Counted from the first letter of the stretch, positions 3,830 to 23,054 are shown. The stretch is DNA of 64,000 bases from Escherichia coli (GCF_050320075.1 NZ_CP190018.1), one strand, 5' to 3'. The notes: generated by a model not told the origin, from the sequence alone. Numbers and translations are program-made.

Positions 3830-3972
3830 AAAAACACCCCTTCTTATGTTTGCTGTCGCGCAGGCTGGAAGCCCGAGGTTTTTTGTTAATGTGGCGGCAG
3901 AGGTAGCCGGACCTTGTAGATACTGCGAAATCTGGCACTGAATCGGTTAACTGTCCAGTCGACGGCCTTTTG

Positions 3973-3988
3973 TGTGATATCAGTCACA
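3973..3988. promoter_or_regulatory. CRP site (TGTGA-N6-TCACA) upstream of mtlA
   Basis: Perfect half-sites tgtgatatcagtcaca; the mtl promoter is known to be CRP-dependent with multiple sites. Confidence 0.7.
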
Positions 3989-4015
3989 TAAATATAGGGG
4001 GTAGAGAGGTAATTG

Positions 4016-4033
4016 ACGTGATGCTCATCACAA
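4016..4033. promoter_or_regulatory. CRP-like site in mtlA/yibI divergent region
   Basis: cgtgatgctcatcacaaa, near-consensus. Confidence 0.45.
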
Positions 4034-4089
4034 AACTCTTGTGTAAAAAAGCAACAAGGCGGCGATTTTCGCTAAAAATGGCATTTAAA

Positions 4090-4105
4090 TGTGAGTGATG
4101 TCACA
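4090..4105. promoter_or_regulatory. CRP site in mtlA/yibI divergent region
   Basis: tgtgagtgatgtcaca, perfect half-sites. Confidence 0.65.
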
Positions 4106-4133
4106 TTTTTATTTTGATGGTTTGTTGAATCTT

Positions 4134-4149
4134 TGTGATCTGAATCACA
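4134..4149. promoter_or_regulatory. CRP site in mtlA/yibI divergent region
   Basis: tgtgatctgaatcaca, perfect half-sites. Confidence 0.65.
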
Positions 4150-4365
4150 AGATATTTTCTTACGGCGTTCACCTGATGTGATCTACAGCATGTTATGCCT
4201 TCGTCATGAAATCGTTATGTAACTAAGCAACTCATCACCTCTTAAAATTATTCTTTGGTGTTATGGCGAGAATCGCGAACCCGGATTATTGTCAAAATAT
4301 CAGCCTGACTCCCTTCTGGCTGCCAGCCAAAAAACAACACTGATAAACGTGAATCCGAGGCAGAT

Positions 4366-4728
4366 ATGTTTCTAAACTATTTCGCGTTGGGAGTGCTGAT
4401 CTTCGTCTTTCTGGTGATTTTTTATGGAATCATCGCGATACATGACATCCCTTATCTGATTGCCAAAAAGCGCAACCATCCCCATGCCGACGCTATTCAT
4501 ACGGCGGGCTGGGTGAGCCTGTTTACTCTACATGTTATCTGGCCGTTCCTGTGGATCTGGGCGACGCTCTATCAACCGGAGCGCGGCTGGGGCATGCAGT
4601 CACATGTTGCGTCGCAAGAGAAAGCGACTGACCCGGAAATCGCCGCACTTTCTGACCGAATTTCCCGGCTGGAGCATCAACTCGCCGCCGAGAAAAAGAC
4701 TGACTATTCCACGTTCCCGGAGATCTAA
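4366..4728 (+). CDS. yibI: Small inner-membrane protein YibI (DUF3302 family, 120 aa)
   Basis: ATG at 4366 preceded by gagg RBS; two hydrophobic helices; recognised as YibI; paralog of yiaW at 19625. Confidence 0.85.
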
Positions 4729-4730
4729 AT

Positions 4731-5867
4731 ATGGATCTATTGATTGTTTTAACTTACGTGGCGCTGGCGTGGGCGGTCTTTAAAATCTTCCGCATTCCGG
4801 TGAATCAGTGGACGCTGGCGACGGCGGCGCTGGGAGGCGTGTTTCTGGTGAGTGGTTTGATTTTGTTGATGAACTACAACCACCCTTACACTTTTACCGC
4901 GCAAAAGGCAGTGATAGCGATCCCCATCACGCCACAGGTGACGGGAATTGTTACTGAAGTCACTGACAAGAATAATCAGCTTATTCAAAAGGGCGAGGTG
5001 CTTTTTAAACTCGACCCGGTTCGTTACCAGGCGCGAGTTGACAGACTTCAGGCTGACCTGATGACGGCGACGCATAATATAAAGACGCTGCGCGCGCAGC
5101 TCTCTGAAGCGCAGGCCAACACCACCCAGGTTTCAGCGGAGCGCGACCGTCTGTTTAAAAATTATCAACGTTATCTGAAAGGCAGCCAGGCGGCGGTGAA
5201 TCCGTTCTCGGAACGTGACATCGACGATGCGCGGCAAAACTTCCTCGCGCAGGACGCGCTGGTGAAAGGCTCGGTGGCGGAGCAGGCGCAGATCCAGAGC
5301 CAGCTCGACAGTATGGTTAACGGCGAGCAATCGCAGATTGTGAGCTTAAGAGCGCAACTTACTGAAGCAAAATATAACCTTGAGCAGACTGTCATTCGCG
5401 CGCCGAGCAATGGCTACGTTACTCAGGTACTGATCCGCCCAGGTACATACGCAGCTGCCTTGCCGTTGCGTCCGGTGATGGTTTTCATCCCCGAGCAAAA
5501 ACGGCAAATTGTCGCCCAATTTCGGCAAAACTCGCTGTTACGTCTGAAACCCGGCGATGATGCGGAAGTGGTGTTTAACGCGCTACCTGGGCAGGTGTTC
5601 CACGGCAAACTGACTAGCATTTTACCTGTCGTGCCAGGCGGTTCTTATCAGGCGCAGGGGGTATTGCAATCATTAACGGTCGTGCCCGGCACGGACGGTG
5701 TGCTGGGAACCATTGAACTGGACCCTAACGATGATATCGATGCCTTACCCGACGGCATCTACGCCCAGGTGGCGGTTTACTCCGACCATTTCAGCCATGT
5801 TTCGGTGATGCGGAAAGTGCTGCTAAGAATGACCAGCTGGATGCATTATCTTTATTTGGATCATTGA
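4731..5867 (+). CDS. yibH: HlyD-family membrane fusion protein YibH (378 aa)
   Basis: ATG 3 nt after yibI stop; N-terminal TM helix, coiled-coil region; paralog of yiaV. Confidence 0.85.
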
Positions 5868-6324
5868 GGGGGGCGGGGGAGATTATGGAACTTTGCTCCC
5901 TGCAAGGACTAATTATTTTTGCATATTATTTCATCGGCTGTGATGATTTTTCGTTAATATCCATTATGTTAAGAAGTTCGGGATGAGTGTGAACTCATTG
6001 GATTTTTTATCCGTCTTGATCTGCCGAAGGATCAGACTATACATTGTCGAGATCGCAATGATGATATGAGTTGTTCCTCTGCCACGGCTCTAATCAAAAA
6101 AGAGCAGGAGTGCTTTTCCATCTATTGCGATGATGGCTTTATTATCTGAAGGATGACAGTCACATTTAAAAATATTTAATTTATAGATCACAATGTAGGT
6201 TCATGTAATATATGTATACAACTATTTTTCTCTTCACTTTTAATTATCGTATTCATTATAACACTAAGTTAAAAAAACTCCTGGAGAGTGAGTTATTAAT
6301 ATGTTTTTAAATATAATTAAGTTA

Positions 6325-6846
6325 TTATTCATCGATGCATTTTATAGAATCATCAATGGCTACAATAGTACTATTAACTCTCCAATTTATATTTTTATTA
6401 TCATTGCAAATATTAACTGAATCTATATCAATGATTTTTTTATTTTTATCTTTTATTTTGTTTACAGTTTCAATGCAATCAGCGACAAGTTGGTGTGGAT
6501 TTAGATTCTTCAGATATGGTCTTATGATCTTTCCCTTGCTTAATAAATAGCATGTATAGGATTCGGAAAGTCCAGCATCTATTTTGTACATCATTATTCT
6601 AGATAAGGATGTGAGAAATGCCTTGTTATCATTAGCAGCCATATATGCCAGTCCGAGTTCAGCCTCTGCGGCTTTACATGAAAAATAGCTAAGTGAACAC
6701 GCTTTTCGTCCCTCTTGGGTACTGGCTGATATTAGTGCCCATAATATTGCCTTGTCTGCCAAATCCAACTCTCTCTGAAATTGGTTTACAGTAACTGCAT
6801 TCGCAGAAATAGAGAAGAAAAGCACAATTGTTAATAACCTTGTCAT
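6325..6846 (-). CDS. Hypothetical secreted protein (173 aa) in rhs-associated AT-rich block; possible orphan immunity protein
   Basis: N-terminal signal peptide MTRLLTIVLFFSISANA; starts 4 nt after the stop of the decayed rhs-relic ORF; very AT-rich codon usage. Confidence 0.5.
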   Translation of the reverse strand: MTRLLTIVLFFSISANAVTVNQFQRELDLADKAILWALISASTQEGRKACSLSYFSCKAAEAELGLAYMAANDNKAFLTSLSRIMMYKIDAGLSESYTCYLLSKGKIIRPYLKNLNPHQLVADCIETVNKIKDKNKKIIDIDSVNICNDNKNINWRVNSTIVAIDDSIKCIDE

Positions 6847-6850
6847 ATTT

Positions 6851-7190
6851 CTAGTCCGTCACTGTTAATGTGCTATCTGGCTCTGAAAATATTAGCTCAT
6901 TTAATTTTTGCATGTCATTAGATGAACCAGTTATACAACCCTCGGAACAGAATCGAGGTCCTAAAGATGGACCAAAAGCGTTTAAACAACTATGTGTTAA
7001 AAATCCATCACGATTATACGTTTCTGTATTTGCTGACGGTACTAAACGTATACCATTAGGTTTTCTATTGGTTGCTCCAGGACTGTTAAGCAAGCCTCGT
7101 CCGGTTTGCTTCATTGAGTTCTCCACTTTAGACTATTGGACTATCTTTCAACATGGCATCGCCTTAGTATACCGCTGGTTTTCCGCTCAT
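6851..7190 (-). pseudogene. Decayed relic of an rhs/PAAR-type 5' end (frame-disrupted)
   Basis: Minus-strand frame from ATG at 7188-7190 reads MSGKPAVY*GDAMLKDSPIV*, compare intact rhs N-terminus [21 protein letters not shown]; adjacent frame (ORF track 6851..7126) has GIRLVPSANTE, compare [11 protein letters not shown] in rhs. Confidence 0.55.
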
Positions 7191-7214
7191 TGTTAATTTT
7201 CTCTTTCGTTCATT

Positions 7215-7625
7215 TCACTTAATTTTCAGTTTTTTCCAAAAGTCAATATTCCCTTCTAATAAAATTTTTTCTATGGAATCTTCATTAATTTTATTATTAG
7301 AGCATATGACATTATCTTGAACGCCATATGACACCACCCCGTTTTTATCAATATAATATCTGTCTTTACCATCAATAATATAAATCCTAACATTTTTATC
7401 ATCAAAATGGTAACACTCATTACTAGACCTGTTCAGTAACATTAATAACTTCTCACGATTTATCTGTAATAATTTTTGTGCACCATCTTTTATTGCAAAA
7501 TTTTCAATTTTACTTTTAGTGACAGGGGAATATGTTTGGATGCGAAAAGGCATCCTATAATGGAAAACATCAGCTATACAGCAAGATGAAAAAAATACGG
7601 AAATAAAATACAGACATACTTTCAT
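7215..7625 (-). CDS. Putative Rhs immunity protein (136 aa) with N-terminal signal peptide or lipobox
   Basis: Sits 57 nt downstream of the rhs stop on the same strand; strong RBS aggag 5 nt before ATG; N-terminus MKVCLYFISVFFSSCC; AT-rich. Confidence 0.6.
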   Translation of the reverse strand: MKVCLYFISVFFSSCCIADVFHYRMPFRIQTYSPVTKSKIENFAIKDGAQKLLQINREKLLMLLNRSSNECYHFDDKNVRIYIIDGKDRYYIDKNGVVSYGVQDNVICSNNKINEDSIEKILLEGNIDFWKKLKIK

Positions 7626-7682
7626 ACCATCTCCTAAACTGGTGATATATTAAAAACATACCCAAAAGCAATATAAAAATGT

Positions 7683-10600
7683 TTAATATTTCATTCTTGC
7701 TGGCAAGCCCAACTCTTTACGAAATGGGTTTTCATATTTATCAACATTAGCCATCGAGTCAGTTCCATCGTCTTTCATTCCCTTTGCATGCCCCATTTCA
7801 TGCGCAAGAACCACACTCAACAGAGTGGGTTTCATGGCACATGCTTTGTTTTTTCCTTGATATACACATGAGCTATGGTCGTTATCAATATCAATGTAAA
7901 AACTATATTCAGTATCATCGTAGCATGTTTGGTTTATGCCTTTTCTTAATCCTCTAAATATATATTCATGCTCTGATGACTCTAATTCTTCTGTTATTTT
8001 ATGTCCAAACTTTGTTTCTGCTACAGCTTTATATGCTTCTTTTAAAGTTTTTTGTGTACTTTCATCTCCCTGAAAAGACACTTTTAACCCTAATGGATCG
8101 AAACCAGATACCGGATTCAACGGATACTGATAAAAATTCCATCCCCCCTTAAGCCCAATCGGATCCTGAGTGATATACCGCCCCTGCAGCGGGTCATAAT
8201 AGCGGTGGCGGTTGTAATAGAGGCCGGACTCCTCATCATACTGCTGACCCGGCAGGCGGATGAGCTGCTGCAGCTGGTGCGGGTTCTCTTCATTCAGCAG
8301 GTTGCCCCATTCATCGTATTCTGCGCACCATTCTGTTGCCCCTTCCGTGCTGACAAGCGCCAGCGGCAGGCCGCGATGGTCGCAGTGGTACAGGTGGATT
8401 TTTCGCGCCGGCGTGTACACCGGGTCCATCTGGTTTTGTATCTGCTCCACCGTCAGGCCGCACGATGCCAGCCAGCGGCGGCTTTCCTCACTCACCCGGT
8501 CAGCCAGGATTTCACTTTCCAGCCGGTCGAGCATCTGCACCAGCACCGGCGGGAACACCACACTGCCACCGTCTTCACCGCCGGACTGCTGAAGCGCATC
8601 CGCCAGGCTGCGGCGCTGCGTTTTCGCCAGCTCACCGGTGGCAGTTTCAACTCTGATGAGTGGCGTGAAGCTCCCCGGCTGATAAACCGTCTGGATGCGG
8701 GTTCTGTCGTTCTGTATTGTGGTCAGCCGGTCGCCGTCCCAGCCGTACCAGGTCACTTCCGGTTTCCGTGACAGCGACATCCAGCCCGTCAGGTCCCGTT
8801 CACGCCGCCACACCCGTTTTGCCACCCTGCGGCCCAGCGGGTCGTAAAGATAGCGACTTTCGACCAGCGGCTCTGCATATTGTGTCCGCGTGTAGTGCAC
8901 CAGCCGGTGCCGGCTGTCGTAATGATACCGGTGAGTCCGCTCATCATCCGTGCGGATAACCCCTTCCGGGATGAGGTCGGTTTTCTCTGTCAGCCTGCCG
9001 TGACGGTCATACCGGTAAAGATAGTGCGCGTCACGGGCGATACGGTTATCCGGCCACATGCTGAGGGTGCTGTCCGGGTGCAGCTCCGGGTCGGGCAGGC
9101 GGTTGCCTGCCGGGTCCGTGGCATACGGGATGCGGATATCCAGGTTCGCTGCCGTGGTGTGGACGCCGGTCAGCCTGCCGGTGTCGCTGTAGCTGTAACT
9201 CCGGGTCTGGCGCGGGCTGCTGATGCGGATGAGTTCGCCGTTGTCGTTCCAGGTGTAATCGCGGTCATACTGCAGGCTGTTCAGGTGCTGGCTCTGTAAC
9301 TGCCCGGCAGAGGTGTAAGCGGTGGTGAGTTCATAACGGCCGAAGCTGCGCAGCGTTTCCCGGTGCAGGCGGTCGCGGGTGTACTCCACCAGCGGTGTGT
9401 CGCCGAGTTTCATGCCTGACAGCCAGCCGCTGCCGTAGGTCAGCCATTCCACGGCGGGCAGGCTGTCCGGTATACAGCGGTTCGCCAGTCCCTGCGCGTT
9501 GTAAGCGTGTCTGGTTTCATGCTGCCAGAGCAGTGCTTCCGTCTGCGGGTGATGCACCGTCTGGCGCTCACCGGTCAGGCGGCCTTTCTCATCATACCCG
9601 TAATGCACCGTCACCCGGTGGCCTTCGCTGAGATGGCTGATGCCTGTCAGCCAGCCGCGTTCGTCATACTGCCACTGCTCTGCCGGTTCACCATTCACCG
9701 TTCGCTGTGTGATGCGGTCTGCTTCGTCATAGTGCCAGTGGGTGACCAGCCCCTCATCCTCGCTGCGGATAAGTTTGCCGGTCAGGTCGTGGTGATAACG
9801 CTGTGTGCGGCCGTCAAAGCCGGTTTCCTGTATCAGCCGGTCAAGTACATCGTAACGGAAGGTGGTGTGGCTGCCGTTTTCACTGGTCAGGCGGATGACC
9901 CGCCCGGCAGCATCGTATTCCATACTGCGCGTCAGACCGCCCTGCGTGGTACGAACGGGCTTTCCCCACGCATCGTACTGTGTCCCGTTTCTGCTGCCGT
10001 CCGGGGCAATGACGGCGGTCAGGTCACCGGCGGCGTTGTATTCATACCGCGTTTCATGGCCCTGCGTGTCTTTCACCGCAATTAACTGTCCACGGCTGTC
10101 GTATGCGCGGTACTGACTCAGCCCTTCCTCGCGGTGCACCGCCGTCATCTGACCAAAACGGTCATGGTCATAACGGGTTACATAACCGGAACAGTCAGTG
10201 ACGGTCAGCAACTGACCGTAACGGCTCCATGTCATGGTTTTCCGGCTGCCGGTGGCATCCTCCGTTGCGCAGGGTAAGTCACTGTGTGGATTATCATAAC
10301 GGTAGCGGGTGATATCGCCGTTGTGTGCGGTTTCCTGAATCAGACGGCCGGATTCATCATATTCCCGGCGCAATTCCAGCCCGTCAGGCCCGGTGGCTGA
10401 CGTTAACTGGCTGTGGTGGTTATAGTAAAATGCCGATGCCCTGCCATCCGGTGTGGTGATGCGCGTGATGAGTCCCGTCACCACATCCGGGCTGTACTCA
10501 GTCGTCCGGCCTGCGGCATCCGTCTGTGCCTTAAGCCTGCCCACCGCGTCAAACTGACTCTGCGTGACGCTGCCGTCCGCGTGTTCCTTTTTCACCACCC

Positions 10601-11825
10601 GCTTCAGCCCGCCTTCGCCCTGCGTGTGCAGCACTTCACGGCGGTCCAGACTGTCGGTGATGGTGATGCGGTCTTTCTCATACTGATACGTGTAGCTTAA
10701 GCCTGCCGGGTTTAGCTGCTCTGTCACCCGCCCGTCGCTGTCGTAACGGTAACGGATTTCTGGCCGGCCCGCGCGGTGGTGCGCCACCATCCGGCCCCGG
10801 TATTTATCATCGTAAGTAAAGCTGCGCACCTGTTTGCCACTGCGGTCATACACCGCCGCCAGTTCGCCGCGTGGCGTCCAGCCATAGCGCACCAGCGGCG
10901 CGGCAGGTAAATTCTCCGGGTATTCCGGGTCGTGTGTCAGCCACACGGCAGACAGACGGATACCGTTGTCCCGGCCATATTCCGTGTAGTCCGGCAGGGT
11001 ATCAGGAAAAGCGGACGGTTCCGTCCCGCCGGAAGAGGCCTGCTGCCGGGCCTCTTCTGCCCGCTGCGCCTGCGTGGTCAGTACCAGCCGGAAGTGACGC
11101 CCGGCACCATCCGTCACGCCGGTGATTTCGCCGCTGAATTCACCGCCAGCCTCACGGTGAAACGTCTGTGTGCGCCCGAAGCGGTCCACCAGCCCGGTCA
11201 GTACCCGGTACGGCGGCAGCGGCGCGGGCAGCACCTCATCCGCTTCCGGCACCCGCTCACACCAGCCGAGCAGCCACCACGGCCCCTGCGGACTGTTTGT
11301 CGCCAGATAACGATGCGGACTTAAGCGGAGTTCTTCCGGCAGCGCCTGCCAGAGTGCGGTCAGCCGGTGACCTTCATCCAGTTTCAGGACACCGCCACGC
11401 ACCAGCCAGAGTGACTCGCTGCGGCTGTAACCGTCCTCACCGGGAAACAGGTGCTCAAAATACAGGCTCCTGCCGCCGTTATCACTGAGTATCAGTGTGT
11501 TATCGCGCAGCTGTAGGCGGATATCCGCAGGCATTTTCCAGCCGGGGCCGAGGCTCCCCACCGGCGCGGGCGTTTTTGTCCGGTAACTGCTGTAGGTGCG
11601 GGAGAGGATGAACGGCAGCGGGCCGGGCAGGGCAAGGTCGGTTTCGCCGGGAAGGACCTTCGCGCCGAGCAGCGGATTGACCGGATGGCCGGACGTCACC
11701 CCGCCGGGGCACACCGAACAGGCCACGCCGGTGGGGGCACCGATGCGCACCCCGGCTGAACCCTGGACAATGCTACCGCCATACTGCGTCATGTCGCCCT
11801 GACGCGCCGCCGGTTTTCCGCTCAT
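7683..11825 (-). CDS. rhsA: Rhs-family polymorphic toxin (1380 aa) with PAAR-like N-terminus, YD-repeat core and variable C-terminal toxin tip
   Basis: N-terminus [11 protein letters not shown]..., many YD repeats, core ends ...[28 protein letters not shown]; the gene symbol reflects locus position (next to yibF-selAB), not the toxin type. Confidence 0.9.
7686..8084 (-). other. Rhs C-terminal toxin domain (133 aa after DPLGL) with HExxHxxGxxD motif
   Basis: Motif [12 protein letters not shown] encoded at 7770-7802; sharp drop to AT-rich composition begins at the DPLGL boundary (8085-8099). Confidence 0.6.
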
Positions 11826-12053
11826 CTGCTCATCCTTGTTTTATCGGGTTATTTGTCTGCTGACAGGCGAAACCCTACAGATTTATAAGAAAGCCTTAAG
11901 TGAGATATCTGTCAGATAAGAACAATTAGGAAAATATTTATATCACCATGATAAATATGTGATTTATTGGGAAGTAACAAACCATCAACATTTTCTGCCC
12001 TTTTTCCCATCACCAGGCCATACTGATATTTTTCCTCGCACAAAGGACTCGGC

Positions 12054-12662
12054 ATGAAACTCGTCGGTAGCTACACCAGCCCGTTTGTACGCAAACTTTC
12101 TATTCTGTTGTTAGAAAAGGGCATAACTTTCGAATTTATTAATGAACTGCCCTATAACGCGGACAACGGCGTGGCGCAATTTAACCCGTTAGGAAAAGTG
12201 CCGGTGCTGGTGACCGAAGAGGGCGAATGCTGGTTTGATTCGCCGATCATCGCTGAATATATTGAATTAATGAATGTCGCTCCGGCGATGTTGCCGCGCG
12301 ATCCGCTGGAGTCGTTGCGGGTGCGCAAAATTGAGGCGCTGGCGGATGGCATTATGGATGCCGGACTGGTATCGGTGCGTGAACAGGCGCGTCCGGCGGC
12401 GCAGCAGTCTGAAGATGAATTGTTACGCCAGCGGGAGAAAATCAACCGCAGTCTGGATGTGCTGGAAGGATATCTGGTCGATGGCACACTCAAAACCGAT
12501 ACGGTCAATCTGGCGACTATCGCCATTGCCTGTGCCGTCGGATATCTCAATTTCCGCCGCGTTGCGCCAGGTTGGTGTGTCGACCGCCCACACTTAGTCA
12601 AACTGGTCGAAAACCTGTTTAGCCGCGAAAGTTTTGCTCGCACCGAACCGCCAAAGGCTTGA
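12054..12662 (+). CDS. yibF: Glutathione S-transferase-like protein YibF (202 aa)
   Basis: 202-aa ORF recognised as YibF; divergent from rhs. Confidence 0.88.
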
Positions 12663-12759
12663 TGCGCGATATGTCCTCCTGACCCATCTCACGTTACAAT
12701 CCGTGGTTATGTTAAACGCCCTTCTCCGTGTGAGAGGGCCTTGATCAGCCAGGTTTCCT

Positions 12760-14151
12760 ATGACAACCGAAACGCGTTCCCTCTATAGTCAACTTCCGGC
12801 TATTGATCGCTTATTGCGCGATAGCTCCTTCCTTTCTTTGCGTGATACTTATGGTCACACCCGCGTGGTGGAATTGCTGCGTCAGATGCTTGACGAAGCG
12901 CGAGAAGTGATTCGTGACAGCCAGACGCTGCCCGCATGGTGTGAAAACTGGGCGCAAGAAGTCGATGCCCGACTGACGAAGGAGGCGCAGAGCGCGCTGC
13001 GTCCGGTGATCAACCTGACGGGAACCGTGCTGCATACCAATCTTGGGCGAGCTTTACAGGCAGAAGCCGCAGTGGAAGCCGTTGCGCAGGCTATGCGTTC
13101 GCCAGTGACCCTCGAGTACGATCTGGACGACGCCGGACGCGGACATCGCGATCGGGCGCTGGCGCAGCTGCTGTGCCGCATTACGGGAGCGGAAGATGCC
13201 TGTATCGTTAATAACAATGCGGCGGCGGTGTTATTGATGTTGGCGGCCACTGCCAGCGGGAAAGAGGTGGTGGTATCTCGCGGCGAACTGGTGGAGATTG
13301 GCGGCGCGTTTCGTATTCCTGATGTCATGCGTCAGGCAGGCTGCACCCTACACGAAGTGGGGACCACCAACCGCACGCACGCTAATGATTATCGTCAGGC
13401 GGTGAATGAAAATACCGCGCTGTTGATGAAAGTACATACCAGTAACTACAGCATTCAGGGATTCACCAAAGCGATAGATGAAGCGGAACTGGTGGCGCTC
13501 GGCAAAGAGCTGGATGTTCCCGTAGTGACTGATTTAGGCAGTGGCTCGCTGGTTGATCTTAGCCAGTACGGTTTGCCGAAAGAGCCAATGCCGCAGGAGT
13601 TGATTGCGGCGGGTGTCAGTCTGGTGAGCTTCTCCGGCGACAAGTTGTTAGGCGGGCCGCAGGCAGGAATTATTGTTGGTAAAAAAGAGATGATCGCCCG
13701 CCTGCAAAGCCACCCGCTGAAGCGTGCATTACGCGCGGATAAAATGACCCTCGCGGCGCTGGAAGCCACGTTGCGTCTTTATTTACACCCTGAAGCACTG
13801 AGTGAAAAATTACCGACCCTGCGCCTGCTTACCCGCAGCGCAGAGGTCATTCAAATCCAGGCACAACGTTTACAGGCCCCCCTTGCCGCACATTACGGCG
13901 CGGAGTTTGCGGTACAGGTTATGCCATGTCTTTCGCAGATTGGCAGTGGTTCGCTGCCGGTTGATCGCCTGCCGAGCGCGGCATTAACGTTTACACCCCA
14001 TGATGGACGCGGTAGCCACCTTGAGTCATTAGCCGCCCGCTGGCGTGAATTGCCAGTGCCGGTGATTGGTCGTATTTATGACGGACGATTGTGGCTGGAT
14101 TTACGCTGCCTTGAAAATGAGCAACGGTTTTTGGAGATGTTGTTGAAATGA
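12760..14151 (+). CDS. selA: L-seryl-tRNA(Sec) selenium transferase (selenocysteine synthase, 463 aa)
   Basis: 463-aa ORF recognised as SelA; overlaps selB start by ATGA. Confidence 0.93.
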
Positions 14152-15992
14152 TTATTGCGACTGCCGGACACGTTGACCACGGCAAAACAACCTTATTGCA
14201 GGCGATTACTGGCGTAAATGCCGACCGTCTGCCGGAAGAAAAAAAGCGCGGCATGACCATCGATCTCGGTTATGCCTACTGGCCGCAGCCGGATGGTCGC
14301 GTGCCTGGTTTTATCGACGTACCCGGTCATGAAAAGTTTCTTTCCAACATGCTGGCGGGCGTTGGTGGTATCGATCACGCGCTGTTGGTGGTGGCGTGCG
14401 ATGACGGCGTGATGGCTCAGACTCGTGAGCATCTGGCGATTTTGCAGCTGACCGGTAACCCGATGCTGACAGTGGCGCTGACCAAAGCCGATCGCGTGGA
14501 CGAAGCGCGTGTTGATGAGGTTGAACGCCAGGTAAAGGAGGTGCTGCGGGAATACGGTTTTGCTGAGGCAAAACTGTTTATCACCGCAGCAACCGAAGGT
14601 CGGGGAATTGATGCCCTGCGCGAGCATTTGCTTCAGTTACCAGAACGTGAACACGCCAGCCAACATAGTTTCCGCCTCGCGATCGACCGTGCATTTACCG
14701 TAAAAGGTGCCGGGCTGGTCGTCACCGGTACGGCGTTAAGCGGGGAAGTGAAGGTAGGCGATTCACTCTGGCTGACTGGTGTAAATAAACCGATGCGTGT
14801 ACGTGCGCTGCATGCACAAAACCAGCCAACAGAAACCGCCCATGCCGGGCAGCGTATCGCGCTTAACATCGCGGGTGATGCGGAAAAAGAGCAGATTAAC
14901 CGTGGCGACTGGCTGCTTACCGATGCGCCGCCGGAGCCGTTCACACGGGTGATTGTCGAGCTTCAAACCCATACACCGCTGACCCAGTGGCAGCCGCTGC
15001 ATATTCACCACGCCGCCAGCCACGTCACGGGACGCGTTTCGCTGCTGGAAGATAACCTTGCCGAGCTGGTATTCGACACGCCGCTGTGGCTGGCGGATAA
15101 CGATCGCTTAGTGCTGCGCGATATCTCGGCCCGCAACACGCTGGCGGGGGCGCGTGTGGTGATGCTTAACCCGCCGCGTCGCGGTAAGCGTAAGCCGGAA
15201 TATCTGCAATGGCTGGCGTCTCTTGCACGAGCGCAGAGCGATGCCGATGCGTTATCTGTTCATCTGGAACGCGGAGCGGTTAACCTTGCAGATTTCGCCT
15301 GGGCACGGCAGCTCAACGGCGAAGGGATGCGCGAACTGCTGCAACAGCCTGGCTATATTCAGGCTGGTTATAGCTTGTTGAATGCGCCGGTTGCCGCCCG
15401 CTGGCAGCGGAAAATTCTCGACACATTAGCGACTTATCATGAGCAACATCGCGATGAACCTGGTCTTGGGCGCGAACGTCTGCGACGTATGGCGTTGCCA
15501 ATGGAAGATGAAGCGCTGGTACTGTTGCTGATTGAAAAGATGCGCGAAAGCGGCGACATCCTCAGTCATCACGGTTGGCTGCATCTGCCGGATCATAAAG
15601 CGGGCTTCAGCGAAGAGCAGCAGGTCATCTGGCAAAAAGCAGAGCCGCTGTTTGGTGACGAACCGTGGTGGGTGCGTGACCTGGCAAAAGAGACGGGAAC
15701 CGACGAGCAGGCAATGCGCCTGACGCTACGCCAGGCGGCGCAGCAGGGGATAATTACCGCGATCGTTAAAGATCGTTATTACCGTAACGATCGGATTGTC
15801 GAGTTTGCCAATATGATCCGCGATCTCGATCAGGAGTGTGGTTCAACCTGCGCGGCGGATTTCCGCGATCGCTTAGGTGTAGGCCGAAAGCTGGCAATTC
15901 AGATTTTGGAATATTTTGACCGCATTGGCTTTACGCGTCGTCGTGGAAATGATCATTTATTGCGCGACGCATTATTATTTCCGGAAAAATAA
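14148..15992 (+). CDS. selB: Selenocysteine-specific elongation factor SelB (614 aa)
   Basis: N-terminal GTPase motifs [23 protein letters not shown]; C-terminal winged-helix region. Confidence 0.93.
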
Positions 15993-16051
15993 GGAAATGA
16001 TTAATTAAGTTTTAAAATAAATTAATACAAAATTCTTATGAATTTAAAAAA

Positions 16052-16086
16052 AGCACATTGTTTAATGAATACAATGTGCTTTTTAT
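16052..16086 (+). terminator. Rho-independent terminator after selB
   Basis: Hairpin agcacattg...caatgtgct followed by a T-run. Confidence 0.6.
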
Positions 16087-16181
16087 TAGATTAATTTTGA
16101 TAATCAATAATACTGATCATATTTTCAAATGAAAATCCTCAGTAAGCTGCCCGCCCTTTTTTACACTTTCAGGAGTGTGTT

Positions 16182-17333
16182 ATGGCAGCTTCAACCTTTT
16201 TTATTCCTTCCGTGAATGTTATTGGTGCTGATTCATTGAATGATGCAATGAATATGATGGCAGATTATGGATTTACCCGTACCTTAATTGTCACTGACAA
16301 TATGTTAACGAAATTGGGTATGGCGGGTGATGTGCAAAAAGCACTGGAAGAACGCAATATTTTTAGTGTTATTTATGATGGCACCCAACCTAACCCCACC
16401 ACGGAAAACGTCGCTGCAGGTTTGAAATTACTTAAAGAAAATAATTGCGATAGCGTGATTTCCTTAGGCGGTGGTTCTCCACACGACTGCGCAAAAGGTA
16501 TTGCGCTGGTGGCAGCCAATGGTGGCGATATTCGCGATTATGAAGGCGTTGACCGCTCTGCAAAACCGCAGCTGCCGATGATCGCCATCAACACCACGGC
16601 GGGTACGGCCTCTGAAATGACCCGTTTCTGCATCATCACTGACGAAGCGCGTCACATCAAAATGGCGATTGTGGATAAACATGTAACTCCGCTGCTTTCT
16701 GTCAATGACTCCTCTCTGATGATTGGTATGCCGAAGTCACTGACCGCCGCAACGGGTATGGATGCCTTAACGCACGCTATCGAAGCGTATGTTTCTATTG
16801 CCGCCACGCCGATCACTGACGCTTGTGCACTGAAAGCCGTGACCATGATTGCCGAAAACCTGCCGTTAGCCGTTGAAGATGGCAGTAATGCGAAAGCGCG
16901 TGAAGCAATGGCTTATGCCCAGTTCCTCGCCGGTATGGCGTTCAATAATGCTTCTCTGGGTTATGTTCATGCGATGGCGCACCAGCTGGGCGGTTTCTAC
17001 AATCTGCCGCACGGTGTATGTAACGCCGTTCTGCTGCCACACGTTCAGGTGTTCAACAGCAAAGTCGCTGCTGCGCGTCTGCGTGACTGTGCTGCTGCCA
17101 TGGGCGTTAACGTGACAGGCAAAAATGACGCGGAAGGCGCAGAAGCGTGCATCAATGCCATCCGTGAACTGGCGAAGAAAGTGGATATCCCGGCAGGCCT
17201 GCGTGACCTGAACGTGAAAGAAGAGGATTTCGCGGTACTGGCCACCAATGCCCTGAAAGATGCGTGTGGGTTTACTAACCCGATTCAGGCAACTCACGAA
17301 GAGATTGTGGCAATTTATCGCGCTGCGATGTAA
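16182..17333 (+). CDS. yiaY: Iron-containing alcohol dehydrogenase family protein YiaY (383 aa)
   Basis: 383-aa ORF recognised as YiaY (Fe-ADH family). Confidence 0.9.
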
Positions 17334-17533
17334 TCATCATTCCCCCAATGGCTGGCTAATTGTCAGCCATTTTTTTAACTATCTCAAAATTTGCGATTTT
17401 TGAGAGAGTTTTAGTTATCTCTGTAATCCTTGCCCGTAAATTCGTGATAGCCGTCGTAAAGCTGTTACCGACTGGCGAAGATTTCGCCAGTCACGTCTAC
17501 CCTTGTTATACCTCACACCGCAAGGAGACGATC

Positions 17534-19072
17534 ATGACCAATAATCCCCCTTCAGCACAGATTAAGCCCGGCGAGTATGGTTTCCCCCTCAAGTTAAAAG
17601 CCCGCTACGACAACTTTATTGGCGGCGAATGGGTAGCCCCTGCCGATGGTGAGTATTACCAGAACCTGACGCCGGTGACCGGGCAGCTGCTGTGCGAAGT
17701 GGCGTCTTCGGGCAAACGAGACATCGATCTGGCGCTGGATGCTGCGCACAAAGTGAAAGATAAATGGGCGCATACTTCGGTGCAGGATCGCGCGGCGATT
17801 CTGTTTAAGATTGCCGATCGGATGGAGCAGAACCTCGAACTGTTAGCGACCGCTGAAACCTGGGATAACGGCAAACCCATTCGCGAAACCAGTGCTGCTG
17901 ATGTGCCGCTGGCGATTGACCATTTTCGCTATTTTGCCTCGTGTATTCGGGCGCAGGAAGGCGGTATTAGTGAAGTGGATAGCGAAACTGTGGCTTATCA
18001 CTTCCACGAACCGTTAGGCGTGGTGGGGCAGATTATTCCGTGGAACTTCCCGCTGCTGATGGCGAGCTGGAAAATGGCTCCCGCGCTGGCGGCGGGCAAC
18101 TGTGTGGTGCTGAAACCCGCACGTCTTACCCCGCTTTCTGTACTGCTGCTAATGGAACTCGTCGGTGATTTACTGCCGCCGGGCGTGGTGAACGTGGTTA
18201 ACGGCGCTGGTGGGGAAATTGGTGAATATCTGGCGACCTCGAAACGCATCGCCAAAGTGGCGTTTACCGGCTCAACGGAAGTGGGCCAACAAATTATGCA
18301 GTACGCCACGCAAAACATTATTCCGGTGACGCTGGAGCTGGGCGGCAAATCCCCAAATATCTTCTTTGCTGATGTGATGGATGAAGAAGATGCCTTTTTC
18401 GATAAAGCGCTGGAAGGCTTTGCACTGTTTGCCTTTAACCAGGGCGAAGTTTGCACCTGTCCAAGCCGTGCTTTAGTGCAGGAGTCTATCTACGAACGCT
18501 TTATGGAACGCGCCATCCGCCGTGTCGAAAGCATTCGCAGCGGTAACCCGCTCGACAGCGTGACGCAAATGGGGGCGCAGGTTTCTCACGGGCAACTGGA
18601 AACCATCCTCAACTACATTGATATCGGTAAAAAAGAGGGCGCAGACGTGCTCACCGGCGGGCGGCGCAAGCTGCTGGAAGGCGAACTGAAAGACGGCTAC
18701 TACCTCGAACCGACGATTCTGTTTGGTCAGAATAATATGCGCGTGTTCCAGGAAGAAATTTTTGGTCCGGTGCTGGCGGTGACCACCTTCAAAACGATGG
18801 AAGAAGCGCTGGAGCTGGCGAACGACACGCAATATGGCCTGGGCGCGGGTGTCTGGAGCCGCAACGGTAATCTGGCCTATAAGATGGGGCGCGGCATTCA
18901 GGCTGGGCGCGTGTGGACCAACTGTTATCACGCTTACCCGGCACATGCGGCGTTTGGCGGCTACAAACAGTCGGGCATCGGACGCGAAACCCATAAGATG
19001 ATGCTTGAGCATTACCAGCAAACCAAGTGCCTGCTGGTGAGCTATTCGGATAAACCGTTGGGGCTGTTCTGA
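17534..19072 (+). CDS. aldB: Aldehyde dehydrogenase B (512 aa)
   Basis: ORF track 17360..19072 trimmed to ATG at 17534 with aggaga RBS ([17 protein letters not shown]...); ALDH family, catalytic Cys region. Confidence 0.92.
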
Positions 19073-19104
19073 TATAAGAAGCTGGTCGCATTGGGTATTC
19101 ATTG

Positions 19105-19187
19105 CCTGATGCGACGCTTACGCGTTTTATCATGCCTACGGGGACCTGACCGTAGGCCGGATAAGGCGTACACGCCGCATCCGGCAT
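19105..19187. repeat. REP elements downstream of aldB
   Basis: gcctgatgcgacgcttacgcg and gtaggccggataaggcgtacacgccgcatccggca palindromic units. Confidence 0.75.
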
Positions 19188-19624
19188 AAACAAAGCGCAC
19201 GTTGTTACAATTTACGTTTTAAACCTACGTGCGCAATAACCCAATAACCCAGACTACGCCAACAGAAGTGCGTTTCTGGGGCGTGTTTTGCCAGGAGTTT
19301 AATCTCGCGTTTCGATGGTGAGCGGGCGAACCAGACCATAAATCACCATTGGCGTTCCGAGGCCAATCAGCAATAAACGGTAGATAATTGAAGGTTTAAT
19401 ACGCTTAATCTGTACTGTGGATGTTTTACTGGAGTTATTCATTAGTTTGGCCAATAGTTCCATTATTTCAATATGATAAGCCTCGCACTGTTGAAAAGCC
19501 AGGCTGCACATTTCAGAAAGTATATAAAAAACAATATGTCGTTATATAAATAAGGAAATTGCACCGCATTATGGTATTTCATAATATGCGTTAATTGTTC
19601 TTTTCTATATTCTCTGAGGGAAAT

Positions 19625-19948
19625 ATGTTCCTGGATTATTTTGCATTGGGAGTGCTTATTTTTGTATTTCTGGTGATATTCTATGGGATTATTATTTTAC
19701 ATGATGTTCCCTACCTGATTGCTAAAAAACGTAATCATCCACATGCCGACGCCATTCATGTTGCTGGTTGGGTAAGTCTTTTTACGTTACATGTTATCTG
19801 GCCATTTTTGTGGATTTGGGCCACGCTTTACCGCCCGGAGCGGGGATGGGGAATGCAAAACCATGACTCCTCCGTTGTGCAACTACAACAGCGTATTGCC
19901 GGGCTGGAGAAACAGCTCGCCGACATCAAATCCTCTTCTGCCGAGTAA
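19625..19948 (+). CDS. yiaW: Small inner-membrane protein YiaW (DUF3302 family, 107 aa)
   Basis: ORF track 19595..19948 trimmed to ATG at 19625 ([10 protein letters not shown]...) with gaggg RBS; roughly 90 percent identical to YibI by eye. Confidence 0.85.
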
Positions 19949-19953
19949 TACTT

Positions 19954-21090
19954 ATGGATTTACTGATTATTTTAACCTATGTGGCTTTCGCATGGGCAAT
20001 GTTTAAGATCTTCAAAATTCCTGTAAATAAATGGACCATTCCCACAGCGGCCCTGGGTGGCATATTTATTGTCAGCGGTTTAATTCTGTTAATGAACTAT
20101 AACCATCCGTATACCTTTAAAGCGCAAAAAGCGGTTATTTCTATTCCTGTTGTCCCACAGGTGACAGGCGTGGTGATCGAAGTGACGGACAAGAAAAATA
20201 CGCTGATTAAAAAAGGTGAGGTGCTATTTCGACTGGACCCGACGCGTTATCAGGCGCGGGTGGATCGGCTGATGGCGGATATCGTTACCGCAGAACATAA
20301 ACAGCGGGCGTTGGGCGCAGAGTTAGATGAGATGGCGGCGAATACTCAGCAGGCAAAGGCCACGCGGGATAAATTCGCTAAAGAGTATCAGCGTTACGCA
20401 CGCGGCAGTCAGGCGAAAGTAAACCCGTTTTCAGAACGTGATATCGATGTGGCGCGGCAAAATTATCTGGCACAGGAAGCCTCCGTAAAATCAGCGGCGG
20501 CGGAACAAAAACAGATCCTGAGCCAGCTGGATAGCCTGGTGTTGGGTGAACATTCTCAAATCGCCAGCCTGAAAGCACAGCTCGCGGAAGCAAAATATAA
20601 CCTTGAGCAGACGATAGTGCGTGCGCCGAGCGATGGTTATGTGACCCAGGTACTGATTCGTCCGGGTACCTATGCCGCGTCGCTGCCGCTACGTCCGGTG
20701 ATGGTGTTTATACCCGATCAGAAACGACAAATCGTGGCGCAGTTCCGTCAGAACTCCTTGCTGCGACTGGCTCCTGGCGACGATGCGGAAGTGGTGTTTA
20801 ATGCTCTGCCAGGTAAGGTATTCAGCGGTAAGCTGGCAGCCATTAGTCCAGCCGTTCCCGGCGGAGCTTATCAGTCGACCGGCACCTTACAGACGTTAAA
20901 CACAGCGCCGGGTTCAGATGGCGTTATCGCGACCATTGAACTGGATGAGCATACTGATTTGAGCGCATTACCAGACGGTATTTACGCCCAGGTGGCGGTC
21001 TACTCTGATCATTTCAGCCATGTCTCGGTGATGCGCAAAGTACTGTTACGCATGACCAGCTGGGTGCATTACCTTTATCTCGATCATTAA
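19954..21090 (+). CDS. yiaV: HlyD-family membrane fusion protein YiaV (378 aa)
   Basis: Paralog of YibH with the same length and architecture. Confidence 0.88.
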
Positions 21091-22061
21091 TCTTCGCTTT
21101 CCGCCGTTTGTTCAGGCCGCAGTTGCTGCGACTGAGCAAGCTGGTGGCGAATTTCACGCAGCATTTCATCCAGCACATACTGGACCCGCCAGGGCTGGTA
21201 TTCCCGTTTACGGAAGATAGCCATCAGATCCAGCCACCATTCATACGGGTGCTGAAAGCAGGGCACCAGCGTGCCGTCTTGCAGGTCGCTCTGCACACTT
21301 TTGTCTGGCGCAAACACAATCCCCAGGTGATTTCGTGCCAGCTCCAGCGCAGATTGCGTGTTGTCGCAAACGTAATTTCCCTTCACGCGATAATCCCGCA
21401 CCTCTTTACTCCCGGCGACGTTGAAGCGCCAGATATTCGCGTCGTCGATCATCATCGAGTCGATCAAAATACAGGAGTGATGTTCGAGTTCGTCAGGACG
21501 GCTAATGGGATGTTTCTCAAGATAGCGCTGGCTGGCATAAGCGGTTACGGCATATTGGGTAATAAAACTGGCAACCAGCGATTCATCTTTTGGTTGGGCG
21601 TAGCTGATTAAAACATCACAATCATCGGGAAATTCGACGCCTTCATAAAAGGCATTACGCTCAAGATTGCAGGTTTTTAGCGATAAGGTGATATCACCGA
21701 TATCTTTAATTTTATCGATTACATGTTTGGATAAATAGGTAATTATGCCGGTTGGTGCATAGATAGTGACCCGACCACGTTTCTCATGCTTATAATCTGC
21801 AATAAAATTATTAAGCTGCTCGTTTCTGTCCAGCATGTCGTTGATGTACGGTAACAGCACGGTGCCAAAAGGTGTGAGCATCAGCTGTCGGGTGGTTCGG
21901 TCAAAGACTTTTAAACCCACTTTTGATTCAAAATCAGCAAGATATTTGCTGACGTTGGCCTGTGCGATGCCAAGTACAGTCGCGGCATGGCTGATATTTT
22001 CACTGGCAGCGATTACCGAGATAATTTTTAACTCCCGGTACTTAAGTTGTAATTTTGTCAT
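21087..22061 (-). CDS. yiaU: LysR-family transcriptional regulator YiaU (324 aa)
   Basis: N-terminal HTH ([36 protein letters not shown]); convergent 4-nt overlap with yiaV. Confidence 0.88.
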
Positions 22062-22184
22062 CGCAACAGCCCAATTATATATAATTTTATATATTACTAT
22101 ATAAATATGAATCTTGCACCGGATAAATTGTAAGCATTACTATGCCGACTCTTTTTTATCTTATTTTAAAATGGAATACCGGAC

Positions 22185-22925
22185 ATGTTAATTAACCGCA
22201 ATATTGTGGCGTTATTTGCGTTGCCTTTTAAGGCAAGCGCAACTGCTTCTGAATTATCCATTGGTGCTGGTGCGGCTTATAATGAATCGCCTTATCGCGG
22301 TTATAATGAAAATACAAAGGCAATTCCGCTGATTAGTTATGAAGGTGATACTTTTTATGTTCGTCAGACCACGTTAGGTTTTATTCTGTCGCAAAGTGAA
22401 AAAAATGAACTTAGCCTGACCGCATCCTGGATGCCGCTGGAATTTGACCCTGCCGATAATGACGATTATGCCATGCAACAGCTTGATAAGCGTGATAGTA
22501 CGGCTATGGCGGGGGTTGCCTGGTATCACCACGAGCGTTGGGGAACCGTGAAAGCCTCTGCGGCTGCGGACGTTCTGGATAACAGCAACGGCTGGGTGGG
22601 GGAGCTATCGGTATTCCACAAAATGCAGATAGGTCGCCTGTCGCTGACACCTGCGCTGGGCGTTCTCTATTATGACGAGAATTTCAGTGACTATTACTAT
22701 GGCATTTCAGAGAGTGAGTCCCGTCGTAGCGGTCTGGCAAGTTATTCCGCGCAGGATGCCTGGGTGCCCTATGTCAGCCTGACGGCAAAATACCCGATAG
22801 GAGAGCACGTCGTATTGATGGCGAGCGCAGGATACAGCGAGCTGCCGGAAGAGATTACCGACAGCCCGATGGTTGATCGTAATGAGAGTTTTACCTTTGT
22901 CACTGGCGTGAGCTGGCGTTTTTAA
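22185..22925 (+). CDS. yiaT: MipA/OmpV-family outer-membrane protein YiaT (246 aa)
   Basis: Signal peptide, beta-rich sequence ending in terminal aromatic (F). Confidence 0.85.
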   Translation: MLINRNIVALFALPFKASATASELSIGAGAAYNESPYRGYNENTKAIPLISYEGDTFYVRQTTLGFILSQSEKNELSLTASWMPLEFDPADNDDYAMQQLDKRDSTAMAGVAWYHHERWGTVKASAAADVLDNSNGWVGELSVFHKMQIGRLSLTPALGVLYYDENFSDYYYGISESESRRSGLASYSAQDAWVPYVSLTAKYPIGEHVVLMASAGYSELPEEITDSPMVDRNESFTFVTGVSWRF

Positions 22926-22929
22926 TTCA

Positions 22930-23054
22930 CCGGTGGATGTCGGTGCGGCTGGCCTACGCTCTCGCACCGACTTGTAGGCCTGATAAGACGTGTTAAGCGT
23001 CGCATCAGGCAATGTGCACCCTACGGTGGATGCGGCGCGAGTGCCTTATCCAAC
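22930..23054. repeat. REP cluster between yiaT and the GH127 gene
   Basis: gtaggcctgataagacgtgttaagcgtcgcatcaggca and cggtggatgcggcgcgagtgccttatcc units. Confidence 0.75.

Follow-up and report, generated by a model that had tools for sequence, protein, structure and literature searches.

Two gene pairs, yibI-yibH (yibIH) and yiaW-yiaV (yiaWV), reside in a 64,000-nucleotide stretch of Escherichia coli DNA (GCF_050320075.1, NZ_CP190018.1; the whole stretch is hereafter called the window). Each pair encodes a small DUF3302 membrane protein followed directly by a 378-amino-acid (aa) periplasmic adaptor, and the two are anciently duplicated operons under strong purifying selection, neither of which is a pseudogene. 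We consider it probable that each pair forms an obligate inner-membrane/periplasmic module, in which the DUF3302 protein and an EmrA-type adaptor serve TolC-dependent export. YibH and YiaV belong to those E. coli K-12 adaptors for which neither pump nor substrate is known, and the four genes all fall in the 'y-ome'. Specifically, yibH and yibI are listed among the uncharacterized y-ome genes (PMC11551758), and YiaV is listed as an uncharacterized member of the family of membrane fusion proteins (MFPs) under TCDB 8.A.1.1.4 (PMC10971958). Public annotation already covers these genes, the families they belong to and their similarity, and the finding itself is therefore known. Beyond a screen in urine, the use of one gene as an integration site, and listings of this kind, the literature yielded no functional study of yibI, yibH, yiaW or yiaV. 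The present analysis replaces the label 'orphan adaptor' with testable statements, namely that the unit comprises DUF3302 plus adaptor, that it is ancient and constrained, and that relatives share an operon with genes for outer-membrane efflux proteins (OEPs) but never with a pump gene.

Paralogy and age of the two operons

Gene names and gene order were taken from the RefSeq record of E. coli CFSAN061763 (NZ_CP042899), which is 100% identical to the window over positions 4000-6200. The four genes of interest are as follows.

yibI, 4366-4728, + strand: 120-aa DUF3302 protein (open reading frame, translation, Pfam PF11742 at 140 bits, RefSeq)
yibH, 4731-5867, + strand: 378-aa EmrA-type periplasmic adaptor (open reading frame, Pfam, AlphaFold2 model, Foldseek)
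yiaW, 19625-19948, + strand: 107-aa DUF3302 paralog of yibI (open reading frame, Pfam, RefSeq)
yiaV, 19954-21090, + strand: 378-aa adaptor paralog of yibH (open reading frame, Pfam, RefSeq)

All four open reading frames (ORFs) are intact and reside on the + strand, which places the pairs in direct orientation, 13.76 kb apart. The gap between yibI and yibH is 2 nucleotides (nt; TAA AT ATG) and that between yiaW and yiaV is 5 nt, and the adaptor gene is probably translationally coupled to the DUF3302 gene. The mechanically called ORF of yiaW begins at TTG 19595; its length of 107 aa is counted from the ATG at 19625, and the sequence GAGGGA sits 5 nt 5' of this codon. A first-pass annotation of the window, made from the sequence alone, had assigned the regions 4366-5867 and 19625-21090 a shared architecture, and the intact ORFs, the short gaps and the 378-aa length of both adaptors agree with that description, the similarity being well above anything expected by chance.

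The two adaptors are identical at 290 of 378 positions (77%) in a gap-free alignment (E = 0). YibI and YiaW share 83 of 113 residues (73%) overall and 91% over residues 1-79, which form the DUF3302 domain, with C-terminal tails that diverge and include an 8-residue indel. Therefore, an identity of about 90%, estimated by eye for the small proteins in the first-pass annotation, applies to the DUF3302 domain but not to the full-length proteins. At the DNA level, yibH and yiaV are 70% identical, with values of 78, 88 and 45% for codon positions 1, 2 and 3. The Nei-Gojobori method yields dN = 0.18 and pS = 0.75 (saturated), for a dN/dS of ~0.045 that is approximate because dS is saturated. Guanine plus cytosine content at third codon positions (GC3) is 63% and 62% for yibI and yibH versus 46% and 54% for yiaW and yiaV. 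Both the synonymous drift and the greater AT-richness of yiaWV that had been noted earlier are thus borne out by third positions that are only 45% identical and by the GC3 values. Low protein identity on proper alignment, or decay of one copy, would have spoken against an old duplication kept by purifying selection; what we observe is 77% and 73% identity, four intact ORFs, saturated dS, a dN/dS near 0.045 and a separate YiaV clade (see below).

DNA homology between the pairs is limited to positions 4354-5865 versus 19613-21088, which extends from 12 nt before the first ATG through the second stop codon. This homology spans only the ribosome-binding site to the stop; the promoters and the downstream regions of the two pairs are unrelated. 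In agreement, no similarity was observed between the mtlA-yibI intergenic region and the region 5' of yiaW. DNA comparison revealed no third copy of the pair within the window.

To place the duplication in time, we examined related loci in other bacteria. A scan for DUF3302 with one genome per species recovered at least 575 loci, from which the best 80 were taken, nearly all of them from Enterobacterales. The 76 best loci that were analysed are mostly from this order, with the addition of Alcanivorax, Rhizobium tropici and two metagenome-assembled genomes. ORF clustering of these 76 loci reveals a yibIH-type context (lldP-yibL-mtlR-mtlD-mtlA, yibI yibH, yibF-selA-selB-yiaY/aldB) in Escherichia, Citrobacter, Klebsiella/Raoultella, Enterobacter, Kluyvera, Leclercia and others, and a yiaWV-type context (selA-selB-yiaY-aldB, yiaW yiaV, yiaU on the - strand, yiaT, GH127, MFS) in several Citrobacter species and in Pseudocitrobacter. 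Both pairs are present in Citrobacter and Pseudocitrobacter in the same linked layout, which is therefore older than the split between Escherichia and Citrobacter.

Protein comparisons point to a still earlier origin. YibH is 91% identical to the YibH of Citrobacter and 80-82% identical to proteins from Yersinia, Serratia and Pantoea, but only 77% identical to YiaV. A neighbour-joining tree, which carries no support values, places the YiaV-type proteins in a separate clade outside that formed by YibH with proteins of Yersiniaceae and Erwiniaceae. Because YibH is closer to the Yersinia, Serratia and Pantoea proteins than to YiaV, and because YiaV belongs to a clade of its own, these sequence comparisons date the duplication to the radiation of Enterobacterales or before. 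YibH and YiaV are about equally distant from the outgroup proteins of Alcanivorax (43.0 versus 43.9% identity) and Rhizobium (42.3 versus 45.2%), which argues that YiaV is not simply the faster-evolving copy.

Further copies were seen outside the window. A third paralogous DUF3302-adaptor pair, followed by a gene for a YiaU-like LysR protein, is present at loci L057, L059 and L075 (Citrobacter sp. MGH106 and Awk 4, and Pluralibacter), and some E. coli genomes carry three places that match the pair.

An EmrA-type adaptor and its probable DUF3302 partner

YibH and YiaV match the Pfam models CusB_dom_1 (56.7 versus a cut-off of 26.5), HlyD_D23 (42 versus 30) and HlyD_3 (33.5 versus 22.2). The best NCBIfam models are those of the EmrA/EmrK subfamily, MdtN and AaeA, with scores of ~111-114 bits against cut-offs of 376-391. 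For the EmrA/EmrK model TIGR00998, YibH scores 114.1 bits and YiaV 110.6 bits against a cut-off of 390.8, and the two proteins are thus related to this subfamily but lie outside it. The best sequence match of YibH in the PDB is E. coli EmrA (E 1e-11), and the matches from the PDB and NCBIfam searches include EmrA, MdtN and AaeA.

An AlphaFold2 (AF2) model of YibH was built from 35 homologs (predicted local distance difference test (pLDDT) score of 80). It contains hydrophobic helices at residues 2-19 and 26-50, lipoyl domain strands within 53-94, hairpin helices at 97-152 and 161-218, a beta-barrel at 221-350 and a C-terminal amphipathic helix at 355-374, with no membrane-proximal domain. Foldseek comparison of this model ranks EmrA of EmrAB-TolC first (8zal/8zar, E 1e-21, TM 0.61-0.67), followed by MacA and AcrA/MexA, and returns adaptor proteins only. 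With Pfam matches that exceed the cut-offs, and with the split lipoyl domain, hairpin and barrel all present in the YibH model, YibH and YiaV are assigned to the membrane fusion protein/periplasmic adaptor family (TCDB 8.A.1). By the positive-inside rule, on which this topology is based, YibH would be anchored in the membrane by its N-terminal part, and the remainder would be periplasmic.

EmrA, the adaptor of the MFS-type (major facilitator superfamily) system EmrAB-TolC, is the best match to YibH in both sequence and structure. The two proteins share an N-terminal anchor (predicted in YibH), a lipoyl domain, a long alpha-hairpin, a beta-barrel and the lack of a membrane-proximal domain, and their hairpin-tip residues align. 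They differ in that sequence identity is only 19-21%, and in that YibH has two conserved N-terminal helices where EmrA has one, together with a strongly conserved C-terminal amphipathic helix. Furthermore, no EmrB-like pump gene adjoins yibH, whose partner gene instead encodes a DUF3302 protein.

Conservation within the adaptor is highest in its membrane-associated parts. In the family alignment, the most conserved regions are the two N-terminal helices (residues 1-52) and the C-terminal helix (353-378) rather than the hairpin, and both are conserved out to Alcanivorax and Rhizobium. The same is observed between the paralogs, where the identity of YibH and YiaV is 83% in residues 1-52 and 96% in the C-terminal helix, but 67% in the hairpin. 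Residues R361, L364, L365, R366, M367 and W370 of the C-terminal helix are invariant in the family alignment. At the hairpin tip, R147 and Y148 are conserved in at least 90% of the sequences and align with the tip of EmrA.

The DUF3302 proteins YibI and YiaW match PF11742 with 140 bits (profile positions 1-76 of 77) and 146.4 bits (1-77 of 77), respectively, against a cut-off of 32. The family itself is small; at 50% identity it amounts to 819 clusters among 1.84 billion representatives. YibI is predicted to have two membrane helices and further carries a conserved turn rich in His (HDIPY..KKRNHPHxDAIH) and, at its C-terminus, a short helix; across the family, a variable linker and then a short heptad helix (L..R...LE..L) come after the DUF3302 core. 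Residues P29, A33, H38, P39, A43, W49, S51, W59, P60 and W65 are invariant in 32 diverse homologs. A low-confidence AF2 model of YibI places helices at 2-35, 41-68 and 90-110. The charge distribution, and homologs with an extra N-terminal helix that is preceded by basic residues, suggest a cytoplasmic His-rich turn and a periplasmic C-terminal helix. A PDB sequence search with YibI recovered no solved relative, and returned only coiled-coil designs that match the C-terminal heptads and weak chance matches.

Some short predicted proteins (P0327, P0369) read as DUF3302 joined directly to the conserved C-terminal tail of the adaptor (...ILRKARLRMSSWMNYVFLEH). Their sequences suggest that they arose by in-frame deletion and retain just those parts of the pair that associate with the membrane.

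Conserved gene neighbourhoods and a proposed role in export

Among the 76 genome loci and additional places in metagenomes and genomes, the adaptor gene lies directly 3' of the DUF3302 gene wherever the flank is readable and intact. Two loci depart from this arrangement. In Aeromonas veronii CP070208 (locus L088, 6343-7380), the adaptor is split into ORFs of 106 and 176 aa and the hairpin region is missing, making it an apparent pseudogene in that strain, and at locus L026 no adaptor ORF was recovered by ORF calling. Several distant DUF3302 representatives reside on contigs that end before the next gene and stand outside this count. This consistent adjacency across Proteobacteria establishes that the conserved unit is DUF3302 plus adaptor. 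The term 'stand-alone adaptor', as applied in the first-pass annotation, is therefore too narrow, given this conserved unit and the distant relatives that share an operon with a TolC-like gene.

Such a gene, encoding a TolC-like OEP, is part of the operon in two distant lineages. The first has the order DUF3302-MFP-OEP, and the second the order OEP-DUF3302-MFP, where the gap is 12 nt and the upstream DNA is AT-rich and non-coding. The known tripartite pumps of E. coli use an unlinked tolC, and so the missing outer-membrane gene next to the E. coli pairs is unremarkable, whereas the missing pump is the unusual feature. Neither a pump nor an outer-membrane partner had been recognized next to the pairs at first. 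The former holds, as no inner-membrane pump is annotated beside either pair in the window, but the latter must be corrected for yiaWV, because yiaT, a gene of the MipA/OmpV family, is located 1.1 kb downstream of yiaV and is a candidate partner of this pair.

Other genes also recur near the unit. A gene for a 222-aa DUF3313 lipoprotein directly adjoins the pair in five Enterobacterales loci (L051, L065, L069, L073 and L077, from Franconibacter/Enterobacter, Biostraticola, Serratia grimesii and Yersinia rohdei). Genes for YiaU-like LysR regulators (beside yiaWV-type and third-type pairs in other genera) and YdgH/BhsA-like genes are likewise recurrent. Further neighbours are Porin_2 (Rhizobium), a gene for a YscW-like lipoprotein (Alcanivorax) and MipA (yiaT in E. 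coli; Shewanella, 4 kb away).

We propose a mechanism for the probable export function introduced above. By analogy with EmrA, the adaptor would oligomerize to form a tube in the periplasm, and the conserved tip of its hairpin would dock onto an outer-membrane channel, which in E. coli would be TolC. DUF3302 may pack against the two unusually conserved N-terminal membrane helices of the adaptor as its dedicated inner-membrane partner. The pair would then export a substrate, with either DUF3302 itself or a transporter encoded elsewhere acting as the translocator. In this reading, yibIH is the housekeeping copy and yiaWV, whose cassette also encodes YiaU and YiaT, an accessory copy under different regulation. 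If DUF3302 is indeed the inner-membrane partner, tripartite export would gain a new architecture; otherwise, the pair would amount to an ordinary adaptor with a pump yet to be located.

Several observations weigh against this proposal. Transport, TolC dependence and contact between YibI and YibH are inferred. When YibI was fused to YibH through a (GGGGS)6 linker and modelled with AF2 from a paired alignment of 16 loci, the mean pLDDT was 70.7 and the predicted TM-score (pTM) 0.45, with the membrane parts at 55-71, which is no better than the monomer. Since confidence did not increase, direct contact between YibI and YibH is not supported computationally. No pump of the RND (resistance-nodulation-division), ABC (ATP-binding cassette), MFS or ArAE (aromatic acid efflux) type is present in the operon in ~90 contexts, which is atypical for adaptors. 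The sole context seen with an RND-superfamily gene nearby is that of Pseudomonas sp. LFM046 (locus L089, 1-5828), where the pair lies 173 nt downstream of a DUF1302-DUF1329-BNR-MMPL cluster. The census of neighbourhoods outside Enterobacterales covers about a dozen loci, and an OEP gene is found in only 2 of the ~11 non-enterobacterial contexts with readable flanks; the other neighbours are heterogeneous (DUF3313 lipoprotein, Porin_2, MipA, and the MMPL cluster in one Pseudomonas). Moreover, yibH has been chosen in K-12 as a neutral locus for integration (PMC5852967). This neutrality, and the absence of yiaWV from 30% of strains, indicate that neither pair is needed in the laboratory.

The lack of a linked pump can be explained in more than one way. 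One explanation is that the pair is a pump-less tripartite system, in which DUF3302 and the adaptor with its two-helix anchor make up the complete inner-membrane component with no separate transporter. A ring of four helices per heterodimer might then surround a pore, with the conserved His and Asp residues of DUF3302 serving in proton coupling or metal binding. This arrangement would fit the operons that comprise only OEP, DUF3302 and adaptor genes with AT-rich non-coding DNA upstream, the lack of a transporter gene in the operon in the ~90 contexts, and the conservation of DUF3302 and of the adaptor's membrane helices, which is exceptionally high for simple anchors. We nevertheless judge it unlikely, because it draws on gene neighbourhood only, the contigs that carry OEP genes are short, the Pseudomonas locus lies beside an MMPL/RND-superfamily gene, and the fused AF2 model is uninformative. 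In addition, we know of no precedent for a two-helix protein as the translocator of an adaptor system. The stronger version, in which the pairs represent a previously unrecognized pump-less class of tripartite envelope system, with His-rich DUF3302 as the translocating or energizing subunit together with a TolC-type channel, appears quite improbable.

Alternatively, the adaptor could work with a canonical pump whose gene lies elsewhere, for instance an orphan transporter of the MFS or ArAE/FUSC type, with DUF3302 as a small AaeX-like accessory subunit. EmrA, MdtN and AaeA, the closest characterized relatives of YibH, each act with a pump of the MFS or ArAE type, and aaeXAB is the nearest analogue of yibIH and yiaWV in layout. 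Like these pairs, aaeX-aaeA-aaeB starts with a gene for a small membrane protein with two helices, which only a few nucleotides separate from a gene for an adaptor of the EmrA branch, and a LysR gene (AaeR) lies alongside. AaeA is 24% identical to YibH (E 1e-16), and MdtN and AaeA are among the top NCBIfam matches of YibH and YiaV. Unlike in aaeXAB and MdtNOP, no gene for an AaeB/MdtO-type pump follows the adaptor gene, and the hairpin of YibH and YiaV is ~60 residues longer than that of AaeA. Homology between DUF3302 and AaeX (DUF1656) was rejected (hhalign probability of 0.1%), and with neither DUF1656 nor an ArAE/FUSC pump the two pairs fall outside the aaeXAB type. Given that AaeX has no detectable homology to DUF3302 and that a pump is never co-encoded in the Proteobacteria contexts examined, which is unusual for systems of this kind, we consider an unlinked pump possible though doubtful.

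The recurrence of genes for outer-membrane proteins and lipoproteins near the pair (yiaT, the MipA gene of Shewanella, DUF3313 in five loci, Porin_2 and the YscW-like gene) also raises the idea that the unit is not an exporter. It could instead be an envelope-spanning structural or sensing tether that acts with such proteins in envelope maintenance or adhesion, which would accord with the reduced adherence of a yibI deletion mutant (see below). However, these neighbours are diverse and mostly reside outside the operon, and of all neighbours found, only true OEP genes sit tightly within it. The fold and the conserved hairpin tip are also those of channel-docking adaptors, and a tether therefore seems an improbable explanation. 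An export module in which DUF3302 and the adaptor act together remains the reading that we favour.

Core and accessory copies and the DNA around them

The two pairs differ sharply in their distribution within E. coli. Of 5426 complete genomes, 5425 contain a yibIH-like match, and 5386 carry the locus with at least 80% coverage together with high identity, whereas yiaWV is found in 3772-3818 of the same genomes (~70%). The genes yiaU-yiaT are present in 3783 genomes, compared with 3818 for yiaWV, and the cassette has a GC content of 0.40-0.48 over positions 21000-22500. Thus, yibIH is the core, vertically inherited copy, with synteny throughout Enterobacteriaceae, and yiaWVUT is a replaceable, AT-rich accessory cassette. 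The two pairs are therefore not equivalent, as ~30% of the complete E. coli genomes lack yiaWV. The other features that are relevant to this region of the window are given here.

mtlA-yibI divergent intergenic region, 3830-4365, no strand assigned: three perfect CRP-type palindromes (3973, 4090, 4134)
intervening 13.76 kb, 5868-19624, no strand assigned: Imm57, hypothetical and RHS core genes (- strand), then yibF, selA, selB, yiaY and aldB; outside the system
yiaU, 21087-22061, - strand: LysR-family regulator gene, convergent with yiaV, with a 4-nt overlap with the yiaV stop; same accessory cassette
yiaT, 22185-22925, + strand: gene of the MipA/OmpV family, part of the yiaWVUT cassette and 1.1 kb 3' of yiaV

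The annotated order is mtlA (- strand), yibI, yibH, an Imm57 immunity gene (-), a hypothetical gene (-), the RHS core gene (-), yibF, selA, selB, yiaY and aldB, followed by a 47-aa hypothetical gene (-), yiaW, yiaV, yiaU (-), yiaT, GH127 (-) and MFS (-). The slot between yibH and yibF (window 5868-12053) is an integration hot spot, where GC content falls to 0.33 at 6000-8000. Strain MS8320 carries a gene for a helix-turn-helix protein, a fimbrial operon and a gene for an S6 peptidase in this slot, and an O166:H15 strain carries a longer rhs array with many frameshifted remnants of immunity genes and toxin tips. In most other Enterobacteriaceae loci of the yibIH type that were sampled, yibH directly abuts yibF, which indicates that E. 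coli gained the rhs element by insertion.

A second variable slot comprises positions 19073-22925 and beyond, between aldB and the GH127 gene. In MS8320, which lacks yiaWV, aldB is directly followed by an epimerase gene annotated as araD (sgbE in K-12 naming). The O166:H15 strain carries a type I restriction endonuclease gene and hicAB at this place, and in strain PSS-16 yiaWV was removed by an IS1-mediated deletion that extends to yiaL.

The direct orientation of the pairs around a variable region could suggest that a recent or recombining duplication, or one decaying copy, explains the rhs variability between them. This explanation is effectively refuted. The pairs have only 70% DNA identity, saturated synonymous sites and no flanking homology, and both copies are intact with a dN/dS of ~0.045. 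The variability resides at two separate spots, yibH|yibF and aldB|GH127-sgbE, with unrelated cargo, and the deletions that were seen are IS1-mediated or are cassette replacements, not yibIH/yiaWV hybrids. Recombination between the paralogs was accordingly rejected as the cause of rhs variability. The first-pass annotation was correct that the pairs flank about 14 kb (measured here as 13.76 kb) that includes rhs, but this bracketing appears incidental, with no sign that paralogy drives the variability.

Some published observations concern the regulation and physiology of these genes. In the uropathogenic E. coli (UPEC) strain UTI89, yibI and yibH were recovered as urine-induced genes, with 5.6-fold induction of yibI, and deletion of yibI gave a competitive index of 0.33 in urine and left the bacteria less adherent to bladder cells (PMC5404293). 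A knockout of yiaU results in higher expression of yiaT, which encodes a predicted outer-membrane protein; yiaWV is not mentioned in that report (PMC9068703). The core copy, yibIH, is therefore urine-induced and matters for UPEC fitness in urine, and the accessory copy stands beside genes of the LysR and MipA/OmpV families.

Upstream of yibI, perfect CRP-type palindromes (TGTGA-N6-TCACA) are located at 3973-3988, 4090-4105 and 4134-4149, where 0.11 would be expected in the 64-kb window. All palindromes of this type in the window fall within the mtlA-yibI region, and the nearest is 217 nt upstream of the yibI ATG. These are presumably part of the known multi-CRP promoter of mtlA, and they could also affect yibIH. 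Promoter scans gave counts near shuffle expectation and were uninformative, as were terminator scans, and an Rfam scan of 3500-23500 detected no RNA family.

Two minor features were observed between aldB and yiaW. A small ORF is present at 19299-19511 on the - strand, and RefSeq places the 47-aa hypothetical protein WP_001066082.1 at the corresponding location. Just 3' of aldB, at 19100-19200, palindromic units that resemble repetitive extragenic palindromic (REP) sequences or bacterial interspersed mosaic elements (BIMEs) were identified by eye only: GCCTGATGCGACGCTTACGCG / GCCGGATAAGGCGT ... CGCCGCATCCGGCA.

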